Assembly: GCA_963703345.1 (NCBI GenBank)
Contig: OY969814.1
Span: 1,630,967 to 1,694,966, forward strand
Length of the DNA stretch: 64,000 nt
Reading direction: 5' to 3'
Source: an uncultured Chloroflexia bacterium
GTDB taxonomy: Bacteria > Chloroflexota > Dehalococcoidia > DSTF01 > JALHUB01
Position numbers and translations under genes: made by a program. Below, piece by piece: positions 4,118-53,862 of this stretch. Each line of letters starts with the position of its first letter. The stretch's first letter is position 1. Under the pieces are notes generated by a model, which made no database searches, was not told where the DNA came from, and was given only the letters and a program-made list of their open reading frames with translations.

Positions 4118-4236
4118 ACTCCCGGTTGTCCGCCGCCCTCCCGGGCCGAAGATTCCGAACGGTATTGCCCATCGTGTGGAGAGCCGCTACCATCATGACG
4201 GCAGGACGCTAGTACCCCATTCGGTAGAGGAAGCGG

Positions 4237-5529
4237 TTGCGAGTTCTCATCGTCGGCTCCGGCGCGCGTGAGCACGCCCTCGCCTGGAAGCTGCGCCAGT
4301 CGCCGCGCCTCGACGCCCTCTACGTCTCCCCCGGGAACGCCGGCACGGCCCAGATCGCGGACAACCTCTCGGTCAAGGCGAACAACGTCGAAGGCATCGT
4401 GCGCACGGCGCAGGAGCAGGCGATCGACCTCGTCGTCGTCGGGCCGGAGGAGCCGCTCACGCTCGGGCTCGTCGACCGGTTGGAGGGCGCGGGCATCGCC
4501 GCTTTCGGGCCGAGCAAGGCGGCGACGGAGATCGAGGCGAGCAAGGTGTTCGCCAAGGAGCTGATGGTCCGACACGGCATTCCCACCGCGCAACACCGCA
4601 GCTTCGATTCGATACTGGAGGCTGGCACGTATATCGCCGAGCACCGCGAGCCGCTGGTCATCAAGGCGGACGGGCTGGCCGCCGGCAAGGGGGCGATACT
4701 GACGCGCGACTCGGCCGAGGCGCTGGAGGTGGCCGACGCGTTGCTCTGCGACCGCGTCTTCGGTGACGCCGGCGCGCGCATCGTCGTCGAGGAGCGGCTG
4801 AGCGGGCGCGAGACGTCGGCGCAGGCGTTTAGCGACGGCAGCAGCGTCGTGCCGATGCCGCTGTCGTGCGACCACAAGGCAGTCTTCGACTACGACGAGG
4901 GTCCGAACACGGGCGGCATGGGCGCCTACAGCCCGCCCGGCTGGCTGCCCCGCGAGACAGTCGACTGGATAGACGAGCACATCACGCGCGCTACCGTGCG
5001 GGCGATGGCGGAAGAGGGTCGGCTGTACCGCGGCGTCATCTATCCCGGGCTGCTGGTGACGGAGAGCGGGCCGCACGTCCTGGAGTATAACTGTCGCTTC
5101 GGCGACCCGGAGACGCAGGCGATACTGCCCCGCCTGGAGAGCGACCTGCTGGACGTGCTGTGGGCGGTGGCGACCGGACGGCTGCACGAGGCGAGCGTCG
5201 AATGGCGCGGCGAGGCGTGCGTGGCGGTGGTGCTCGCTTCCGGCGGCTACCCGGGCAAGTATGAGACGGGCTTCCCCATCGAGGGGCTGGACGATATCGA
5301 CGACGATGTTATGCTGTTCCACGCCGGCACGAAGACGGACGAGGACGGCCGGATCGCGACGAGCGGCGGGCGCGTACTCACCGTGTCAGCGCTGGGCGCG
5401 ACGCTGGAGGAAGCGCGTCGGAAGGCGTACGCGAACGTGGAGCGCATCCGCTGGCCGGGCATGCACTACCGGACGGATGTCGGCGGGCGGCGGCAGCGTC
5501 CGCGTCCGGAATGGCTGGAGATACCGTGA
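4237..5529 (+). CDS. purD: Phosphoribosylamine--glycine ligase
   Basis: MRVLIVGSGAREHALAWKL N-terminus, ATP-grasp motifs; 430 aa. TTG start. Confidence 0.85.
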   Translation: MRVLIVGSGAREHALAWKLRQSPRLDALYVSPGNAGTAQIADNLSVKANNVEGIVRTAQEQAIDLVVVGPEEPLTLGLVDRLEGAGIAAFGPSKAATEIEASKVFAKELMVRHGIPTAQHRSFDSILEAGTYIAEHREPLVIKADGLAAGKGAILTRDSAEALEVADALLCDRVFGDAGARIVVEERLSGRETSAQAFSDGSSVVPMPLSCDHKAVFDYDEGPNTGGMGAYSPPGWLPRETVDWIDEHITRATVRAMAEEGRLYRGVIYPGLLVTESGPHVLEYNCRFGDPETQAILPRLESDLLDVLWAVATGRLHEASVEWRGEACVAVVLASGGYPGKYETGFPIEGLDDIDDDVMLFHAGTKTDEDGRIATSGGRVLTVSALGATLEEARRKAYANVERIRWPGMHYRTDVGGRRQRPRPEWLEIP

Positions 5530-6413: not shown

Positions 6414-7702
6414 TACCAAAATACTCGCGACCGGAGATGGCCGCCATCTGGTCGGACAAGGGGAAGTACGACCGCTGGCTTGAGGTCGAGATTGCCGTCT
6501 GCGACGCCTGGGCCGAGCGCGGCGACATTCCCCAGGAGGCGGCGGAGAAGATCCGCAACGCCCGCTACAACCTTGACGACTTCGAACGCTACCTGAAGGA
6601 AATCCACCACGACGTCATCTCCTTCCTTCGCTCCGTCGCCGACAGCCTGGGCGAGGAGTCGCGGTTCGTGCACATGGGGCTGACTTCGTACGACGTCGTA
6701 GACACGGCGCTGGGCATGCAGCTCCGCGACGCCAGCGACATCCTCCAGCGCGACCTGGAAGCGCTGACCGCGGTCGTCGAGGAGAAGGCGCGGCGCTACA
6801 AGGACACGCTGATGATGGGCCGGACGCACGGCGTCCACGCCGAGCCGATAACCTTCGGGCTCAAGCTTGCCGGCTGGGTCGACGAGCTGCGCCGCAACGG
6901 CCGCCGTCTCGCCGACGCGCGCGCGGAGGTGGCGATCGGCAAGGTGAGCGGCGCCGTCGGCAGCCACGCGACCGTGCCGCCGGAGATCGAGGAGACGGTC
7001 TGCGCGCGGCTGGGCCTGAGCATTGAGCCAATCAGCACGCAGATCGTGCAGCGCGACCGCCACGCCCGCTTCGTCACGACGCTGGCGATTCTGGCGTCGT
7101 CGCTGGAGAAGTTCGCGACGGAGGTCCGTCACCTACAGCGGACGGAGGTGCTGGAGGTTGAGGAGCCGTTCGAGGAGGGCCAGGCGGGCTCGAGCGCGAT
7201 GCCGCACAAGCGTAACCCGGAGAAGTGCGAGCGCGTCTGCGGGCTGGCGCGGGTCGTGCGGGGGTATTCGGTCACGGCGCTGGAGAACGTAGCGCTGTGG
7301 CACGAGCGCGACCTGACGGACTCGGCGCCGGAGCGCGTCATCCTGCCCGACGCCTGCCTGGTGCTGGACTACATCCTGGACCTGTTCACTTATGTAATGC
7401 GCGGCCTCCAGGTCTATGCGGACCGAATGCGCGAGAACCTGGAGCTGACGCAGGGGCTGGTCTTCACGTCGCGGGCGCTGGTGGCGCTGGTCAACAAGGG
7501 GCTCAGCCGCGAGAAGGCGTACAAGCTGATTCAGGCGTGCTCGATGCGGGCGTGGAAGGAGCGCGTTCCCCTGCGCGGCCTGCTCGAGGGCGACGCCGAA
7601 GTGTCGGCGCTGCTGTCGGCGGCGGAGCTGGACGCGATATTCGACTACAGCGTCTATACGAAGTACGTGGACGACTCCTTCCGGAGGGTGGACCTCCTTT
7701 GA
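6410..7702 (+). CDS. purB: Adenylosuccinate lyase
   Basis: YSRPEMAAIWSD..., fumarate-lyase signature GSSAMPHKRNP. Confidence 0.85.
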   Translation: MIPKYSRPEMAAIWSDKGKYDRWLEVEIAVCDAWAERGDIPQEAAEKIRNARYNLDDFERYLKEIHHDVISFLRSVADSLGEESRFVHMGLTSYDVVDTALGMQLRDASDILQRDLEALTAVVEEKARRYKDTLMMGRTHGVHAEPITFGLKLAGWVDELRRNGRRLADARAEVAIGKVSGAVGSHATVPPEIEETVCARLGLSIEPISTQIVQRDRHARFVTTLAILASSLEKFATEVRHLQRTEVLEVEEPFEEGQAGSSAMPHKRNPEKCERVCGLARVVRGYSVTALENVALWHERDLTDSAPERVILPDACLVLDYILDLFTYVMRGLQVYADRMRENLELTQGLVFTSRALVALVNKGLSREKAYKLIQACSMRAWKERVPLRGLLEGDAEVSALLSAAELDAIFDYSVYTKYVDDSFRRVDLL

Positions 7703-7737
7703 ACAGCGTCCCCTCCGGCGGCGGCCTGCGGCGTCCC

Positions 7738-8442
7738 ATGGAGCTGGGGCAGATCGTCAACACGGCGATCAAAGTCTACCGGCAGAACTTCGGCGAGTTC
7801 CTGGCGATTGCGGCCGTCACCCTGCCTATCAGCGCGATAGGGGCCATCCTGGGAGGTCTCATCGAAGACAGGGTGACTGCCGGGGTTGTCGTCGCGGTCT
7901 TCACTGTGCTCAGCGCGGTGATCACGCTGGTCGCCGATGCGGCTCTGGTGCGCGGCGTGGCGGACGTTGCCGAGGGCATACCGCCGGACTTCAACTACGT
8001 GTACGTGCGCGTCTTCGAACGGCTGGGCGCGCTCTTCCTGACCGTCCTGCGCGTGCTGGTGATATTCATAGCGCTCTGTATTACTGTCGTTGGCATTCCC
8101 TTCGCAGTCTATTTCCTCGTGCGGTGGGCGTTCGTCACGCAGACCGTGATTATTGAAGGCCAGTCAGGCCACGGGGCGATGGAGCTCAGCGCCGGAGTCG
8201 TGCAGGGTTGCTGGTGGCGCACCCTAGGCGTCTTGTTCATCCTTGGACTGCTGGCAAGCTTTCCGACGGGCGCCGTCAGCCTGCTGTTCTCGGCGGCAGC
8301 GCCGGTTGCGGGCAGCCTGGCGAGCGCGGTGGTCGCGGTCATCGTGCTGCCATTCAGCGCCACGGCGTCGACGCTGCTGTTCTTCGATCTGCAAAGCAGG
8401 GAGCGCGAACGTGTCAGTATTGCTCGAGACGAATCTGCCTAA
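7738..8442 (+). CDS. Polytopic membrane protein of unknown function, between purB and purC
   Basis: Six or more hydrophobic helices. No recognisable catalytic motif. Start is ambiguous (TTG at 7699 also possible). Confidence 0.5.
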   Translation: MELGQIVNTAIKVYRQNFGEFLAIAAVTLPISAIGAILGGLIEDRVTAGVVVAVFTVLSAVITLVADAALVRGVADVAEGIPPDFNYVYVRVFERLGALFLTVLRVLVIFIALCITVVGIPFAVYFLVRWAFVTQTVIIEGQSGHGAMELSAGVVQGCWWRTLGVLFILGLLASFPTGAVSLLFSAAAPVAGSLASAVVAVIVLPFSATASTLLFFDLQSRERERVSIARDESA

Positions 8443-9587: not shown

Positions 9588-9857
9588 AGCGTGCCTTTTG
9601 TGGCGGGAATTTCCCCTGCTTGAATCGGGCGGCCGAACACAGTCCTGAGGGTTGAAACGGTAATTGTATACTTGACACAAGGCTGCTCACCTGCTATTCT
9701 TGTCTTGTGATGATGATGCAGATTCGGTTTCAGGCTTCTCGGGGTGAGCGAGCTTCTTCAAATGCTTCGCGGCTTTCTTCGGAAAGACGCGTTTCGCAAG
9801 TTCTTCGCTCGTCATCTCGTGGGCCTTCTTCTTACGCTTGGGCATAGGAGAACTCCA

Positions 9858-34913: not shown

Positions 34914-36941
34914 ATGTGGCATCCTAAGAGCGTCAGAATCATCGTCATCCCGGTAGCGGCGTTGGCCGTCGGCCTCGCCCTGTGCGCGGCGATCTTAGTC
35001 ATCGCCCTGGGAGTGCGCCCAGCGGCGGCAGGGCCGAACGCCAGCCCGGGCGCGCCCAACCCGGGCCACGCCTGGGCCGAAATCGAAGGCCACGGGACAG
35101 ACTCAGCAGGCTGGTGGCTGGGCACCAGCGCCAGCACGGCCCTGGAGCTGCGCGTGAACGGTGTCCGCGCCCTGCGCCTGGAGCCCAACGCCACCAGCCC
35201 CAACGTCATCGGCGGCTACAGCGGCAACAGCGTGACGGCGGGTGCGGTGGGAGCCGCCATCGGCGGCGGCGGGGCGAGCGGCAATAGTAACAGCGTGAGC
35301 GACGACTACGGCACGGTGGGAGGGGGCTACAAAAACCAGGCGGGCGACAACGCGGGCACCACCTCAGACCGCACCTACGCCACCGTCGACGGGGGCGCCC
35401 TCAACATCGCCGACGGCACCACCTCTACCGTGGGCGGGGGCGCCTCGAATCACGCCAGCGGCGGCGGCTCGGCCGTCGGCGGGGGCTGGAGCAACACGGC
35501 CAGCGGCGTGTTCGCCACCGTGCCGGGGGGCGTCAGCAACACCGCCAGCGCCGACTACGCCACAATTGCGGGAGGCGGCAGAAGCGACCCCAACAACGCC
35601 AGCACGGGCAACCGCGTGACCGACAACTACGGCACGGTGGGAGGAGGCGGAAACAACCAGGCAGGCGACGGGGGCGACACCACAAGCAGCACCTACGCCA
35701 CCGTCGGCGGGGGCCAGAGCAACACCGCCAGCGGCACCCTCGCCACCGTCGGCGGGGGCCAATCCAACAACGCCAGCTCGTACGCCACCGTCGGCGGGGG
35801 CCAAAACAACAACGCCAGCGGCGGCGGCGCCACCGTCGGCGGGGGCTACGGCAGCATCGCCAGCGGCGGCTACGCCACCGTCGGCGGGGGCAGCAGCAAC
35901 ACGGCCAGCAGCAACTACGCCACCGTCGGCGGGGGCCAGAGCAACACTGCCAGCGCCGACTACGCCACCGTCAGCGGGGGCGACGGCAACCAGGCCAGCG
36001 CCGAGGGCGCCACCGTCGCCGGAGGCGGCTACGACCCCCTCTTCGGGGAGGGGGGCAGCAACTTGGCCAGCAATTTGGATGCCACCGTCGGCGGGGGCGC
36101 ACACAACATCGCCAACAGCGACTCCGCCACCGTCGGCGGGGGCAATTACAACACGGCCTCAGGGCCAGCCGCCACCGTGCCGGGGGGCTGGTGGGACGTC
36201 GCGTCGGGAATGTACAGCTTCGCTGCCGGCAACCGGGCCAAGGCCAACAACCAGGGGTGCTTCGTGTGGGCCGACTCTACCTACGCCGACTACACTTGCA
36301 GCACCAACGACCGGTTCCAGGTCCGCGCCAACGGCGGCGCGCGCTTTGACGTGAACAACGGCAGCTTCGTGCAGATCTTCAATGACGGGGTCAACCTTAT
36401 CAACACCTCGGCGGGCGGCGCGCGTCTGACGATGGCCGGCGTTTGGACCAACGCCTCGGATGCCGCCCTGAAGGAGAACTTCAGTCTCGTGGACGGCAAG
36501 GAGGTACTCGCCGACGTCGTCGCCATGCCCGTCAGCACCTGGAGCTACCGCGTCGAGGGCAGCGACACCGTGCACATGGGCCCGACGGCGCAGGACTTCT
36601 ACAGCGCGTTCAAGCTGGGCGACAGTGACAAGTCCATCGGCACCGTGGACGCCGAGGGCGTGGCGCTCGCATCCATCCAGGGGCTCTACCAGCTCTCCCA
36701 AGAGCAGGCCACCCGCATCCAGACCCTGGAGGACGAGAACGCTTCCCTCAAGCAAGGGCTTGACAGCCTGGACGCGCGGGTGACGGCGCTGGAAGGGGCA
36801 AACGGGACGAGCAACAGCAGCAACGGCGGATCGGCTGGACCGTTCTCCTCCGGCCTGAGCATCGGCTGGCTGCCTATCGGCGGACTGCTGGTGGCGGGCC
36901 TGGTCCTGGTGCAGCGCCGCCGCGCGGGAGGCAAGCGATGA
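34914..36941 (+). CDS. Cell-surface fibre protein: N-terminal signal anchor, ~25 Gly-rich 12-13-aa repeats (ATVGGGxSNTAS), a phage tail-fibre-type C-terminal intramolecular-chaperone (peptidase S74) domain, a coiled coil, and a C-terminal TM plus RRR tail
   Basis: SDAALKENFSLVDG...VSTWSYR...HMGPTAQDFYSAFKLG...LASIQGLYQL matches the S74 auto-cleaving chaperone signature (SDxxLKxNI...). C-terminus is LPIGGLLVAGLVLVQRRRAGGKR. Confidence 0.7.
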   Translation: MWHPKSVRIIVIPVAALAVGLALCAAILVIALGVRPAAAGPNASPGAPNPGHAWAEIEGHGTDSAGWWLGTSASTALELRVNGVRALRLEPNATSPNVIGGYSGNSVTAGAVGAAIGGGGASGNSNSVSDDYGTVGGGYKNQAGDNAGTTSDRTYATVDGGALNIADGTTSTVGGGASNHASGGGSAVGGGWSNTASGVFATVPGGVSNTASADYATIAGGGRSDPNNASTGNRVTDNYGTVGGGGNNQAGDGGDTTSSTYATVGGGQSNTASGTLATVGGGQSNNASSYATVGGGQNNNASGGGATVGGGYGSIASGGYATVGGGSSNTASSNYATVGGGQSNTASADYATVSGGDGNQASAEGATVAGGGYDPLFGEGGSNLASNLDATVGGGAHNIANSDSATVGGGNYNTASGPAATVPGGWWDVASGMYSFAAGNRAKANNQGCFVWADSTYADYTCSTNDRFQVRANGGARFDVNNGSFVQIFNDGVNLINTSAGGARLTMAGVWTNASDAALKENFSLVDGKEVLADVVAMPVSTWSYRVEGSDTVHMGPTAQDFYSAFKLGDSDKSIGTVDAEGVALASIQGLYQLSQEQATRIQTLEDENASLKQGLDSLDARVTALEGANGTSNSSNGGSAGPFSSGLSIGWLPIGGLLVAGLVLVQRRRAGGKR

Positions 36942-37606
36942 GACGAGCAGCAATATTCGCGGCCCTGCTCCTCGCTGTGCTGGCGGGCGCGCTCCGTGGG
37001 TACTGGCCGCTGGGCAGTGGCTCTGTCTCGTCCGCAGGCGGGCTGACATGCAGTGTGAGGGCGGGTAGCTGCGTCGGCGGCGAGGTAGCGGTATTCCGGA
37101 TGTCGGCCCTGGCCAACGCTCATGCGGGAACGGCGACCGTCTCGGGCTACCCTGACGTGGTGTGCTGCAGCGGCGTGACGGGCCTGAGCAATAGCTGTAG
37201 CGGGAGCCACGCCACGGTGCTGAGGCTATCGGCGACGGACAACGCGCACGTGGCCTCCAGCGACCCCAGCTACACGACCCAGGCGTGCCTGTCGGCGACC
37301 GGTACAACAATTACCTGCCAGTACGCATCAAGCTGCGGCAGTGGTTACACTTGCCTGGCAACTATCTACAGCAGCACCAACGCGCACGTGGCGGACTGCG
37401 ACGGCACCAACGACTACGGAACGAAGGTGTGTTGCTACGCCGGCGCGGCTGTGGCCGTCGGCGGCGTGGCGGAGCCTCCGGACGTAGCGGGATCGGGGAG
37501 CGGGTCGTCTTCTCCGCCGTATGCGGCGCTGGCGGGAGCGGCGGCAGGGGTCGTCGCGCTGGCGGCGGGCGGATGGTACGTTAGGAGGCGTTGGCGCACG
37601 GACTAG
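36938..37606 (+). CDS. Secreted Cys-rich protein (about 20 Cys) with a C-terminal VAVGGVAEPPD - G/S linker - TM - AGGWYVRRRWR tail
   Basis: Signal peptide MRRAAIFAALLLAVLAGA. Shares its C-terminal motif with the gene at 38530. 4-nt overlap with the upstream gene. Confidence 0.6.
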   Translation: MRRAAIFAALLLAVLAGALRGYWPLGSGSVSSAGGLTCSVRAGSCVGGEVAVFRMSALANAHAGTATVSGYPDVVCCSGVTGLSNSCSGSHATVLRLSATDNAHVASSDPSYTTQACLSATGTTITCQYASSCGSGYTCLATIYSSTNAHVADCDGTNDYGTKVCCYAGAAVAVGGVAEPPDVAGSGSGSSSPPYAALAGAAAGVVALAAGGWYVRRRWRTD

Positions 37607-37609
37607 CGG

Positions 37610-38287
37610 CTAGGTCTGCCAGACGACCTCGTAGAGCCTGAAGCGGCCGGGGAAGCCCCGGATGCTGTGCTTCCCCCTGTCGACGAACTTGAACCCCGGA
37701 TAGGGCCCGCCGAGCTCCTTCACGAGCTCCGACATCAGTATCTGATTGCCCTTCGCTTTCTCGGCGATGCGGGCCGCCAGGTTGACGGCGGCGCCGAAAA
37801 GGTCCTGCTCATCGCGGAGGGCATCGCCGGAGTTGAGGCCCATGCGCAGGACGAGCGGCCTGTCGGGGTTGTCGCGGTTCTGCTCGGCGATCTTGCGCTG
37901 GATGTCGATGGCGCAGAGGACGGCGCGACGGGCGCTGGTGAAGGCGACCATAAAGCCGTCGCCCTGGTACTTGATTTCGGTGCCGCCGTGGTTCTGTATC
38001 TGGGCGCGGACGATCTGGTTGTGGCGCTTGAGGGCGTCGAGGGCCTGCTGGTCGCCGACGGAGGCGGTGAGGTCGGAGAAGCCCTGGATGTCGGTGAAGA
38101 GGACGGTTACGGTTGCCTCGACGGTCGTCTGAAGGGCGAGGCCGAGGGCGTGGCCGCACTGGGCGCAGAACCGCGAGCCTTCCGGGATGGTGGCGCCGCA
38201 GTTGGCGCAGATGAAGGGCGCCGACGGCGTGGCGCTAAAGCGGTCGTCGGGCAGGAGGGAGCCGGCATGGTGGTCGATGTCTTCCAT
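37610..38287 (-). CDS. Class III adenylate/guanylate cyclase with an N-terminal double zinc ribbon
   Basis: CANCGATIPEGSRFCAQCGHAL, then a CHD core (VTVLFTDIQGFS...GDGFMVAF...LRMGLNSGD...FGAAVNLAARI). ATG at 38287; the ORF is open further upstream. Confidence 0.7.
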   Translation of the reverse strand: MEDIDHHAGSLLPDDRFSATPSAPFICANCGATIPEGSRFCAQCGHALGLALQTTVEATVTVLFTDIQGFSDLTASVGDQQALDALKRHNQIVRAQIQNHGGTEIKYQGDGFMVAFTSARRAVLCAIDIQRKIAEQNRDNPDRPLVLRMGLNSGDALRDEQDLFGAAVNLAARIAEKAKGNQILMSELVKELGGPYPGFKFVDRGKHSIRGFPGRFRLYEVVWQT

Positions 38288-38529
38288 GCCTGCGGGCGGC
38301 CGGACGGGGTCGGATGACGGCATGACATTCCTCGTCGAAGGCGCATGATCGCCTAACATTTCACCGTAGCATGCCGCAGAAGGATCGTCAAACGAGGGGA
38401 TTCGCGGCGTCGAGAGGCGGCACGGGTCGTCGAGTACGGGACATTGCTTGCACGAACCAGGGCCTTGACATTCGTCGCGCGAAGAGTATGCTTGGGATGC
38501 TGGTGGTCGATAGTGGTCTATGGAGGTGC

Positions 38530-40326
38530 ATGATGCTCTCCTCACGCCTGCTCCGTCTTTTCCCGCTTCTGTTCGTCTGTTCGCTCGTGGTGATGTCGTC
38601 GGGTTCCAGCAGAAAGGCCCTGGCCGGGGTCATCGGCCAAATGTTTGGCGGCACCTCGCCGGCATCTGCAGCAAACGCCTCGGCCGTGTCCGCGGGGTGG
38701 AACTACACCTGCGCTCTAACGACAGCGGGCGGACTCCAGTGCTGGGGGAACAACTGGTACGGCCAGCTGGGGGACGGCACTACCACCGATCGCCACACCC
38801 CCGTCGACGTCTCAGGGCTCACCAGCGGCGTGGCCACCGTGGCCGCGGGCAATTTCCACGCCTGTGCCCTCACCACCGCGGGCGGCGTCGAGTGCTGGGG
38901 GTGGAACTACTACGGTGAGTTGGGGGACGGCACCACCACCTCGAGCACCACCCCCGTCGACGTGTCCGGTCTCAGCAGCGGCGTGGCTGCCGTGGCGGCA
39001 GGCGCCGAGCACACCTGCGCCCTGACAATACAGGGCGGCGTCAAATGCTGGGGGTACAACGCCGACGGCGAGTTGGGGGACGGCACCACCACCTCGAGCA
39101 CCACCCCCGTCGATGTCTCCGGCCTCACCAGCGGCGTGGCCGCCGTGGCCGCAGGCGCCATTCGGACCTGCGCCCTGACAACGGCGGGCAGCGTAAAGTG
39201 CTGGGGATCCGGTTACGGGCTCAACCCAGTCGACGTCTGCGGCGCCATCAGTGGCATGGCCGCCGTGGCCGCAGGCGACTATCACACCTGCGCCCTCACC
39301 AGCGGTGGCGGCCTCAAGTGCTGGGAGAACAATACCTACGGCCAATTGGGGGACGGCACCACTACCTGGCGCACCTCCCCCGTCGACGTCTCCGGCCTCA
39401 CCAGCGGCGTCGCTGCCGTGGCACCAGGCTCCATTCACACCTGCGCCCTGACCACGGGGGGCGGCGTCCAGTGCTGGGGGTGGAACCACGACGGTCAGTT
39501 GGGAGATGGCACCACCACCTCACGCCACACCCCGGTCAACGTCTCCGGCCTGACCGGCGGCGTGGCCGCCGTGGCCGCGGGCACCAATCACACTTGCGCC
39601 CTGACCACGGGTGGCGCCCTCAAGTGCTGGGGGGACAACAGCTACGGCGAGTTGGGGGATGGCACCACCGCCTCGCGGCACATCCCCGTGGACGTGCTGT
39701 TCAGCGGCGAACCGACGCCCACCGCCACGCTCACCTCCACCCCCGGTGGGCCCACCCCCACGTACACTGCCACTCCCGCGGCCACTGTCACTCCCACGTA
39801 CACGCCGACAGCAACGTCCACACCCCTGGTGGGTCCTCAGATCGACAAGACTGTCAACGGCCGGCAGTGTCTCGTCGTCGCCTCGGGTGACTCGGTCATC
39901 TACCATTGGGTCGTCACCAATGCTGGTGGCGAAGCATTCACCGCCGACGTCAATGATGACACTCACGCCGCCCTTGACAACCACTGCTCATCGGTCGCGC
40001 CGGGCGACACATGCGAGCAGTCGGCGCAGGTGGCCCTTCTGACCCCGGGACTCGTCACGGACATCGCCTCAGTGGAGGCGTGCAGCACTGGATCCGGCTG
40101 CAGTTCCGCCTCGGACTCTGTCACGGTCAACGTTCTGGCCCCTACGCCGACGCGCGATCCAGTGGCCGTTGGCGGGATTGGGGAGCCGCCGGATGACATG
40201 AAGACGACGCATGGAGGCGGCGGGCCTCCGGTGGGCGCAATCGCGATGCTTGCGGGCGTCGCTGTCGTCGTCGCGATGGCCGGCGGATGGTACGCGCAGC
40301 GGCGGGTCGGGCGTCAGCGGCGGTAG
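38530..40326 (+). CDS. Secreted RCC1-repeat beta-propeller protein (7-8 repeats) plus a DUF11-like beta-sandwich domain, a Thr/Pro linker, and a C-terminal [11 protein letters not shown] - linker - TM - [15 protein letters not shown] tail
   Basis: Repeats of the form [45 protein letters not shown]. Signal peptide [21 protein letters not shown]. Confidence 0.7.
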
Positions 40327-42421: not shown

Positions 42422-43402
42422 TCAACGGCCGGTGTGCGTCTCTAGTGCGATCTGGCTCAGGTGCTGAAGCACATGATCTACCCACCTTTGGTACCAACAC
42501 CACTGGCCACAGACCGGCACGCCAAACCCCTTGGCCGGGTTCTTTGCATCGGTGTTCTTCCACAACTGAGTGTGCTGGTAGATACCGAAACTCGCAAATC
42601 CCTCTTCACGGGCGATTCTGATGACATCCTTCGCGCGGAACTTCGGTTTCTCGGTGTCTTTCAGCACCCAGCGCTCCTTCGGAACGTCCCCTGCTTCTTC
42701 AGAATCGGGGGAGATGAACTCGAATACGCTGTCGGCCTGACCTCGCTTGCCAACCGCTTTGTCAGTGAAGAAGAAGCGGCGAGAATAGCGTTTGCTGTTC
42801 ATTTCATCGTCACTCAGGCCATCATCAAATCGAGAGACGTATGATCGAATAGAGTTTGGAATGGTGTCGTCGCCGGATACCATACTTGCGACTTGCTGCC
42901 GGCTCAACTCAGCGAACTGAATGCTATAGGTTAGATGTCGGTCGAGCCCATAGCGGGGACCGAACAGCTTCTTTAGATAGTGATCGTAGTTGAGAGCGCA
43001 CGCCTGATATCTCCCTGAGAGGTGGGTGTCTAGCTGGGGAGGCTTGACGTGCTCGATTTCGTGTCTCAATCCTAGCAGGAATTGGAGGTTGTTCCTCGTG
43101 TCTCGGTCCAGAGGACACTGTTCAACCTTGAGACACTTGGCCAGATCCCAGTACCGATGCCGGCCGTCAACTCGCTCGAACATGCGCCTTTTCGCGCCCG
43201 GTTTGTAGTAGCGGTACTCCACTTTTGCCCCTCTGTAGTGCGCGTGCAGCAAATATGTCCAAGCCATGACCATCAATACAATAAAGGTCTCACTCTTGAA
43301 GGTGATGAGGGGGTTGTTGTAAGTCTGAATGGCGGCAAGAGCCGCTTCTCTTGAGCTTCGGATCAGCGCGACCTTGTGAGAGAACAACTTCCTTGCTGCC
43401 AT
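42422..43402 (-). CDS. DUF3644-like protein of unknown function in a low-GC (~52%) islet between uvrB and ruvA
   Basis: AALAAIQTYNNP...FKSETFIVLMVMAWTYLLHA resembles the DUF3644 N-terminal signature. Its GC is about 15 points below the neighbours. The ORF is open to 43462. Confidence 0.5.
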   Translation of the reverse strand: MAARKLFSHKVALIRSSREAALAAIQTYNNPLITFKSETFIVLMVMAWTYLLHAHYRGAKVEYRYYKPGAKRRMFERVDGRHRYWDLAKCLKVEQCPLDRDTRNNLQFLLGLRHEIEHVKPPQLDTHLSGRYQACALNYDHYLKKLFGPRYGLDRHLTYSIQFAELSRQQVASMVSGDDTIPNSIRSYVSRFDDGLSDDEMNSKRYSRRFFFTDKAVGKRGQADSVFEFISPDSEEAGDVPKERWVLKDTEKPKFRAKDVIRIAREEGFASFGIYQHTQLWKNTDAKNPAKGFGVPVCGQWCWYQRWVDHVLQHLSQIALETHTGR

Positions 43403-43513
43403 GCCTACCTCCCGACCGGATTTGCCTCCACCAGCTAGAGCACTGGCGGGGTATTCCGGCAAAGAGATAATACAGGCCTAATTCGTGAGCGGCAATTGCC
43501 CTCGCTGAGCGTG

Positions 43514-52944: not shown

Positions 52945-53862
52945 TTGAACATGACTCAGGCTGGAAACTTGCACGCACGTCCCCTGTTCCTGCTCCTGGC
53001 GCTGCTCGCGCTCTCCCTCGGCTCCGTGCTGGCCGGCTGTGGCGGCGGCGGAAAGAAAGCGGCCGGAGAGGAATACATCGTTTTCTCGACCAGTCGCAAC
53101 GGCCTCTCCGAAGTCTACTCAATGCGCTTCGACGGCACTGTTCAGAACTTGACGGCCAATCCAGCAGGGGACTACGCGCCCTCTTGCTCGCCCGATGGCT
53201 CCAAGATCGCCTTCACGTCGGACCGCGACGGCGACCTCAAAGTGTTTGTCATGAACGCCGACGGCAGCGACCAGACGGCGCTCACGAGCAGCACCGGCGG
53301 CGTCTACTCGCCCCGCTGGTCGCCCGACGGCTCCTTGATTGCCTATGATTCAAAAGAGAGCGGCATTGAGCAAATCCACGTCATGAAGGCTGACGGAAGC
53401 CATGACGCGAATCTCTCAAACAGCCAGGCAAACGATTGGGGGCCTTCCTGGTCGGGGGACGGCAGCAAGATCGCCTTCACGAGCGATCGCGACGGCAACC
53501 AAGAGATATACGTGATGAGCGCGAACGGCGGCGATCAGACGCGCCTCACGGATAGCAGCGCCGAGGACTGGGCCCCTTCGTTCTCGCCGGACGGCTCGAA
53601 GATCGCTTTTGTGACTGACCGGGAAGGTGATCCCGAAATCTACGTAATGAACGTTGACGGTTCCGACCCGCAAAACCTGACGAACAGCAATTCGACCGAT
53701 TGGTCACCCGCGTTCTCCACCGATGGCTCGCGCATCGCGTTCGTGTCTGACCGCGATGGCGACCCCGAGATATATGTCATGAATGCCGACGGCTCAGGGT
53801 TGACGCGCCTCACGCACAACACGGCTCAGGACATTGGTCCCGCCTGGTGCCGGCTCCCCTAG
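52945..53862 (+). CDS. TolB-like lipoprotein with about 6 PD40 (WD40-like beta-propeller) repeats
   Basis: Lipobox LAGC, repeated PxxSPDGSKIAFxSDRDGxxEIYVMNADGS units. Confidence 0.7.
   Translation: MNMTQAGNLHARPLFLLLALLALSLGSVLAGCGGGGKKAAGEEYIVFSTSRNGLSEVYSMRFDGTVQNLTANPAGDYAPSCSPDGSKIAFTSDRDGDLKVFVMNADGSDQTALTSSTGGVYSPRWSPDGSLIAYDSKESGIEQIHVMKADGSHDANLSNSQANDWGPSWSGDGSKIAFTSDRDGNQEIYVMSANGGDQTRLTDSSAEDWAPSFSPDGSKIAFVTDREGDPEIYVMNVDGSDPQNLTNSNSTDWSPAFSTDGSRIAFVSDRDGDPEIYVMNADGSGLTRLTHNTAQDIGPAWCRLP

Follow-up and report, generated by a model that had tools for sequence, protein, structure and literature searches.

A recurrent C-terminal tail domain of Chloroflexota surface proteins and a candidate clan CD membrane enzyme encoded next to it in related genomes

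This report deals with a C-terminal tail domain carried by two secreted proteins of an uncultured Chloroflexota bacterium, and with a family of membrane proteins, encoded beside such tails in related genomes, that is a candidate for their processing enzyme. The two proteins are encoded in a 64-kb stretch of contig OY969814.1 (hereafter the window, meaning the whole stretch of DNA that was analysed). Three open reading frames (ORFs) lie there on the + strand, at 34914-36941, 36938-37606 and 38371/38530-40326, as an earlier note made from this DNA had described them, and the last two, a Cys-rich protein and an RCC1-repeat protein, end in the same tripartite tail: the motif VAVGG[VI][AG]EPPD, a 10-residue spacer, then a PP-led Ala-rich helix ending in GGWY and an Arg cluster. 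The parts of the two proteins are as follows.

36938-37606, + strand: Cys-rich secreted protein, an ORF of 222 amino acids (aa), which has a putative signal peptide at its N-terminus and three Cys-rich repeats of the NAH(A/V) type, and ends in the tail domain
37451-37483, + strand: motif VAVGGVAEPPD of the Cys-rich protein, read from the translation
37484-37513, + strand: Gly/Ser spacer VAGSGSGSSS between motif and helix of the Cys-rich protein, from the ORF translation
37514-37579, + strand: hydrophobic helix of the Cys-rich protein, PPYAALAGAAAGVVALAAGGWY; the family conserves the Ala-rich helix and its GGWY end at each position
37580-37606, + strand: basic cluster VRRRWRTD of the Cys-rich protein with the stop codon; the family consensus is ARRRWLR-stop
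38530-40326, + strand: surface protein with a beta-propeller of RCC1 repeats, 598 aa when counted from M54, and with the C-terminal tail domain
40162-40194, + strand: signature motif of the RCC1 protein, from the translation and the tail model
40195-40224, + strand: spacer of 10 residues between motif and helix of the RCC1 protein, from the ORF translation
40225-40293, + strand: hydrophobic helix of the RCC1 protein, 23 residues, from the ORF translation
40294-40326, + strand: basic cluster of the RCC1 protein, 10 residues, with the stop codon, from the ORF translation

Both proteins have hydrophobic, signal-peptide-like N-termini, and in both the tail match ends 2-3 residues short of the stop codon. 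The RCC1 ORF opens at 38371 and its M54, at 38530, begins the signal-peptide-like stretch; Pfam assigns it WD40_RLD (2.6e-90) and RCC1 seven times, that is, families of the RCC1 type only, and does not reproduce the label DUF11 formerly given to it. Its N-terminal part clusters with the tail-bearing proteins of loci L001, L007, L012, L019, L050 and L052. The Cys-rich protein has no Pfam family at cut-off; its closest relative, P0052 from a Dehalococcoidia metagenome-assembled genome (MAG), is 60% identical to it and has the same EPPD variant, so that the window in all likelihood belongs to a Dehalococcoidia bacterium of high G+C content. The two window tails are ~40% identical to each other, and no further ORF of the window has EPPD or GGWY near its stop codon. 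A profile hidden Markov model (HMM) built from 165 metagenomic tails, with no window sequence in its making, scores the Cys-rich tail at 71.2 bits (E 4e-24) and the RCC1 tail at 41.1 bits (E 1e-14), so that the tail common to both proteins, whose letters had been correctly read, is recovered independently. Between the two genes, on the - strand, lies a zinc-ribbon adenylate/guanylate cyclase gene (37610-38545).

The tail is by no means confined to this locus. A profile of the two window tails matched 2 metagenomic proteins and, after iteration, 37, and a HMMER pass over 1.84 billion cluster representatives yielded 1,801 tail matches at E<=1e-3 and 468 at E<=1e-10, a family far larger than the local duplication of two paralogues that the earlier note had named as a competing possibility. 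Among the 150 best of these, nearly every match reaches the last residue of its protein, and the tail is joined to unrelated N-terminal domains, including LamG, PD40 propellers, RCC1, beta-helix, subtilase with FG-GAP and DUF7453. When 185,579 species genomes were scanned with a 5-sequence tail alignment, all 20 tail loci obtained (some of which share a genome) fell in MAGs of Chloroflexota, mostly Dehalococcoidia, and one MAG, PFL44, has at least 8 tail ORFs. The tail is thus a genuine, widespread and recurrent modular C-terminal domain. One further gene of the window is of interest here, a PD40 beta-propeller lipoprotein-like protein at 52945-53862 that lacks the tail and has tail-bearing homologues in other Chloroflexota (e.g., L016 8084-9358); the occurrence of PD40 homologues with and without it illustrates the modular gain and loss of the tail.

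A logo of 233 distinct tails details the conservation. The motif part has a Pro-rich lead-in, V (89%), GG (100%), I, A (80%), E (80%), L (72%), P (77%) and D/E, and is followed by V-S/A-G/D-S-S and then by a variable stretch. The helix reads [PN]-Y-A-A-L-A-G-G-A-A-A-A-[LV]-[VL]-A-L-[TA]-A-G-[GA] before W, and the C-terminal end consists of W (100%), Y (96%), A (92%), RRR (90-95%) and finally W-L-R-stop. The distance from GG to W is most commonly 35 residues and, with few exceptions among the 233 tails, 25 to 49, the spacer between motif and helix ranging from 8 to 22 residues across the family, whereas the spacing to the stop codon is fixed, with Trp nine residues from the end in 175 tails. 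The family consensus can be written PVGGIAELPD...NYxALAGLAAAALVALTAGGWYARRRWLR, of whose ELPD the EPPD of the window is a lineage variant. This pattern of conservation is unlike that of a generic anchor, and we consider it rather probable that the tail is an unnamed sorting-type domain specific to Chloroflexota, for which we propose the name VGG-AELP/GGWY-CTERM.

The window tails and ten consensus-like relatives were compared with NCBIfam release 20.0 (June 2026) and with Pfam at E<=10. On the window tails every model stayed below its cut-off, and no dedicated model was present among those scanned, which agrees with the earlier statement that the EPPD...GGWY signature falls outside all named classes. 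The nearest models aligned with the helix and Arg part only: GVDTG_CTERM (NF058571) peaked at 19.5 bits, its cut-off being 29, and MYXO-CTERM (TIGR03901) 18.2 bits against 20, the Cys that is invariant in MYXO-CTERM having no equivalent in the tail motif. LPXTG_anchor (TIGR01167) gave 15.8 bits on one window tail (cut-off 15.9; model positions 8-31) and no match on the other, and on the ten relatives it passed the cut-off just twice (16.1 against 15.9), again over the helix and Arg part, from model position 6 on. Neither the window tails nor the relatives were matched by the PEP-CTERM, PGF-CTERM or GlyGly-CTERM models. The PEP-CTERM-like architecture previously ascribed to the tail therefore holds for the succession of motif, helix and basic cluster, but not for their spacing, since the motif is set off from the helix by 8-22 residues. 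In the literature we found no description of the tail or of the enzyme discussed below, the coverage of subscription journals being incomplete.

Clustering of the neighbouring genes of tail loci brought out a protein of 180-295 aa that is encoded directly downstream of the tail gene, on the same strand, in L009, L011 and L015; the same family adjoins P0034 in L021. It counts at least 884 homologues, all labelled 'hypothetical', the named ones coming from Dehalococcoidia, and no Pfam or NCBIfam model matches it at cut-off, the single hint from Pfam being CHAT (E 0.04). Its members begin with a stub rich in Lys and Arg, which is followed by one helix (residues 40-64 of P0177) and then by a domain of ~215 residues. 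The invariant residues include R140, H142 and S143 (in LIILRVHS), M214, G215 and C216 (in VVMMGCDG), W239 and H247-T-D249, with R140, D249 and the equally invariant D217 as candidates for the S1 pocket; H142 and C216 are invariant in 80 sequences and each follows a hydrophobic beta-strand (136-140 and 210-214, respectively). The AlphaFold2 model, whose core has a predicted local distance difference test score above 90, and its structural neighbours predict for the ectodomain a caspase-hemoglobinase fold of the CHAT-like kind, with CHAT/separase and gingipain ranked above C13 and with DdvA among the top matches. On the model, the protein crosses the membrane once, has an ectodomain of the caspase fold (clan CD, CHAT-like) and looks like an active clan CD peptidase. 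In L035, two paralogues of the gene stand in tandem (1-251 and 520-1404).

The linkage of this gene with the tail is strong. A metagenome scan with the enzyme alignment supplied the best 80 loci of 483 relatives, on whose six-frame ORFs the tail HMM was run; 72 of them had at least 200 nucleotides (nt) of sequence upstream of the enzyme and could be evaluated. A tail ORF ended 17-312 nt upstream of the enzyme match, on the same strand, in 57 of these 72 loci (50 of 65 when only non-identical loci are counted), usually with a gap of ~30 nt, whereas ~0.5 adjacent loci would be expected by chance, as calculated from 18 other tails in 527 kb. The arrangement of tail gene then enzyme gene is also that of L009, L011, L015 and L021. 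The substrates adjacent to the enzyme fall into 15 unrelated N-terminal clusters, and the constant feature beside the enzyme is consequently the tail. Conversely, the enzyme lies within 10 kb in 3 of the 20 tail-anchored genome loci, a proportion that fits many substrates per enzyme. Over 36 pairs of enzyme and adjacent substrate (L009-L101), the enzyme's linker from helix to domain (12-26 residues) and the motif-to-Trp distance of the substrate are negatively correlated (Spearman rho -0.52, p 0.001), in a sample made of clade blocks and uncorrected for relatedness. The earlier note had predicted a dedicated processing enzyme elsewhere in the genome, of the exosortase, archaeosortase or rhombosortase type or a novel polytopic protease; the prediction of a dedicated enzyme has strong genomic support in related genomes, but the linked protein is of another kind, being single-pass and, on its model, of the clan CD fold.

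Two other elements accompany the enzyme gene. Short degenerate ORFs precede it in L023 (~4230-4472), L033 (~1-229), L032 (~60-259) and L038 (~280-467), with ends like AGAWYAGRRCVR or AGAWYAERRWLG, which suggests a decayed former substrate gene. Just downstream of it and on the same strand, 12 loci (L011 11144-13174 and 11 others) encode a protein of ~680 aa that contains a lytic transglycosylase domain of the SLT type (Pfam 3e-27). This protein might act as a third component, or it might hint at a link with peptidoglycan; with a Mur ligase gene in the window as well, a connection with peptidoglycan is conceivable, as a hint only.

The fibre protein encoded directly upstream of the Cys-rich gene had been listed as a third carrier of the tail:

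34914-36941, + strand: Gly-rich fibre protein of 675 aa, with a Peptidase_S74 chaperone domain (Pfam PF13884, 7.7e-07), a coiled coil, and its own C-terminal helix and Arg cluster

That claim fails, since the tail HMM gives -36.5 bits (best domain -0.8) for the end of this protein, LPIGGLLVAGLVLVQRRRAGGKR, which has only a generic helix and Arg cluster in common with the two others; the protein is outside the tail family. The fibre and Cys-rich genes overlap by 4 nt, as operon partners, and the same gene pair is kept in L102 and L103 (L102 2-1234 and 1231-1911, in the Dehalococcoidia MAG GCA_049511815.1). The layout of the fibre protein resembles that of MYRF, by analogy with which self-cleavage by the S74 domain would free the fibre from its membrane anchor. 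The scan of window ORFs further turned up NfeD/SPFH, BirA, Mur ligase, IS1595, DUF3644, PD40, CARDB with SH3 and adenylate cyclase genes; the IS1595-family transposase (9744-10766) and the DUF3644 protein (42422-43462) stand in patches with a G+C content of 0.59-0.60, compared to ~0.66, that are probably recent insertions.

On this basis the following course of events may be proposed. Tail proteins would be exported via Sec thanks to their N-terminal signal peptides, after which the C-terminal Ala-rich helix would hold them in the cytoplasmic membrane with the WYARRRWLR end in the cytoplasm, and the outer face would present a Pro-rich stalk, the PVGGxAE(L/P)P(D/E) motif and a flexible spacer. 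The single-pass enzyme would have its basic N-terminal stub in the cytoplasm and its clan CD ectodomain, with the invariant His/Cys pair, outside; indeed, by the positive-inside rule, the basic stub and the helix at 40-64 would place the catalytic domain on the motif's side of the membrane. The spacer would let the motif segment reach the active site, the enzyme would cut in or beside the motif, and the mature protein would be released or transferred to an acceptor of the envelope. One substrate gene would be co-transcribed with the enzyme gene in related genomes, and the others, like the window pair, would be scattered in a many-to-one relationship. That the tail is an unnamed Chloroflexota sorting domain processed by a co-encoded clan CD membrane enzyme is the reading we favour, with somewhat more confidence than doubt. 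We are inclined to doubt, while regarding it as possible, a bolder version in which the protein would be the Chloroflexota counterpart of the glycosylphosphatidylinositol (GPI) transamidase reaction, a clan CD transpeptidase that recognises the signal of motif, spacer, helix and Arg cluster, cuts at VGG..ELPD and attaches dozens of surface proteins, themselves unrelated, to lipid, glycan or peptidoglycan as the acceptor.

Several points weigh against processing by the clan CD protein. Beside the observed tail domain, its distribution, the gene linkage, and the fold and conserved residues of the enzyme, cleavage is something we infer, and so are the topology, the cleavage site and any transfer reaction. 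The window itself has no enzyme gene according to tblastn and to Pfam searches of selected ORFs, and among the selected membrane and unknown ORFs there is no sortase, exosortase, rhomboid or clan CD gene. The tail of the RCC1 protein is a divergent member of the family (41 bits), whose basic end departs from ARRRWLR. In 15 of the 72 evaluable loci no intact tail gene stands upstream of the enzyme, and some of these show degenerate 'AGAWYA.RRW' remnants instead; many of the loci, moreover, come from few related sediment studies and are hence not independent. Concerning the enzyme, the profile matched no solved peptidase among the PDB sequences, giving noise only, and the putative catalytic pairing of H142 with C216 is drawn from the model and from conservation rather than from a residue-level superposition.

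Other explanations have to be weighed against this one. The tail might be a permanent anchor that is never cleaved, built as stalk, helix and stop-transfer segment, with the motif and helix serving oligomerisation or localisation and the clan CD protein acting as a protease or sheddase with other targets, or as a regulator. This would account for the helix and the cytoplasmic WYARRRWLR being conserved as much as the outer motif, which could reflect a binding function, and CHAT-domain proteins also take part in signalling, for instance the transmembrane anti-sigma factor DdvA, a top structural match. We nevertheless regard it as unlikely, since the 15 unrelated clusters of substrates beside the enzyme have the tail alone in common, since the invariant pair of His and Cys would argue for catalysis, and since the succession, on the membrane side of the enzyme, of conserved motif, variable spacer and helix has the look of a juxtamembrane cleavage site. 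As for a chance resemblance of low-complexity sequences or a local duplication of two paralogues, it is brought to mind by the Ala/Gly-rich tails and by genes that are 1 kb apart, and its probability is negligible; with 1,801 representatives, tails only ~40% identical and scores of E 4e-24 and 1e-14 from an independent HMM, it is refuted.

The two remaining explanations invoke enzymes of known classes. Some tails read LPDATG or LPDVSG, and some score 15.8-16.1 bits with TIGR01167, around its cut-off, so that the tail could be seen as a degenerate LPXTG-type signal that a classical sortase links to peptidoglycan, a polymer that the organism makes, as its Mur ligase indicates; in L008 a sortase gene (7237-7932, - strand; PF04203, 2e-20, with a TLITC motif) even converges on a tail-like ORF limited to the helix and GGWYARRRWLR. 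However, the LPXTG model aligns with the helix and Arg part, from model positions 5-8 onward, and never with the LPXTG motif; the logo has V/A and S/A/G where LPXTG needs T and G, the window reading PPDV or PPDD; the invariant VGG and GGWY are without counterpart in sortase signals; and a sortase neighbour occurs in one of 101 loci, as compared with the clan CD gene in 57 of 72. Given the unaligned motif and this single neighbour, a sortase was rejected as the main enzyme, and we judge this explanation very unlikely. It is also highly improbable, in our opinion, that a polytopic enzyme of the exosortase, archaeosortase or rhombosortase type, encoded elsewhere, processes the tail. The tripartite design does resemble those of PEP-CTERM, PGF-CTERM and GlyGly-CTERM, and sorting enzymes are often encoded at a distance from their substrates (Haft preprint), yet none of these three models matched at E<=10, the motif abuts the helix in those systems and is separated from it here by the 8-22-residue spacer, and no polytopic neighbour recurs in ~100 loci where the clan CD gene does.

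C-terminal sorting signals set the surface display of bacteria, each known class of signal having its own class of enzyme, and sortases and legumain-type ligases became tools of protein engineering. In Dehalococcoidia and related Chloroflexota, abundant and mostly uncultured bacteria of sediments and the subsurface whose envelope biology is poorly known, the tail distinguishes a large set of surface proteins, and its repeated gene pairing with a predicted caspase-fold membrane protein makes a concrete enzyme-substrate hypothesis. A clan CD enzyme would here be connected for the first time with a bacterial C-terminal signal of the helix type, an echo of the GPI-anchoring signal and its transamidase; should the transpeptidase version be true, it would form a fifth, structurally unrelated class of prokaryotic sorting enzymes for such signals, after sortase, exo/archaeosortase, rhombosortase and myxosortase. 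In practical terms, annotation with two new HMMs, one for the tail and one for the enzyme, would give a label to well over a thousand clusters of 'hypothetical protein'.

Among known systems, the CHAT proteases (Craspase TPR-CHAT/Csx29, SAVED-CHAT, DdvA) and separase differ from the candidate enzyme as cytoplasmic proteases of defence or the cell cycle, with large regulatory domains and unrelated genomic partners, and the sequence similarity of the enzyme to CHAT proteases is negligible (the Pfam CHAT match remains below cut-off). At the sequence level it belongs to none of the named families C11, C13, C14, C25, C50 or CHAT, according to Pfam, NCBIfam and PDB sequences. PEP-CTERM with exosortase, PGF-CTERM with archaeosortase, GlyGly-CTERM with rhombosortase and MYXO-CTERM with myxosortase are likewise lineage-restricted tripartite domains in a many-to-one relation with a dedicated protease, and were found by like genomic reasoning, whereas in those systems the motif adjoins the helix directly and the enzyme is a polytopic protein, intramembrane or membrane-embedded. 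Similarly, the LPXTG signal, like the present one, combines a motif with a hydrophobic helix and a basic cluster at the C-terminus, and sortase is likewise an extracytoplasmic Cys/His enzyme anchored in the membrane, with many substrates, some of them encoded beside it; sortases have, however, an unrelated beta-barrel fold, and motif and spacing differ.

The signal of the type IX secretion system (T9SS) is a folded beta-sandwich domain of ~80 residues, and PorU (C25, clan CD, Bacteroidota) acts on the outer membrane of diderms; this signal differs from the tail in having no succession of motif, helix and Arg cluster, and the sequences of the two systems show no similarity. PIGK has its anchoring helix at the C-terminus and works within a five-subunit complex, whereas no partner subunits were seen at the loci of the enzyme, and GPI signals are devoid of both a conserved sequence motif and an Arg cluster, which the tail possesses. 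We know of no GPI-like acceptor in Chloroflexota, and C13, the family of PIGK, ranks below CHAT/separase and gingipain among the structural neighbours of the enzyme. The tail system belongs to neither family; it is nonetheless the GPI signal with PIGK-Gpi8 (C13, clan CD, eukaryotes) and the PorU system that come closest to it in design logic, with a site, a hydrophilic spacer and a hydrophobic end served by a single-pass clan CD enzyme.

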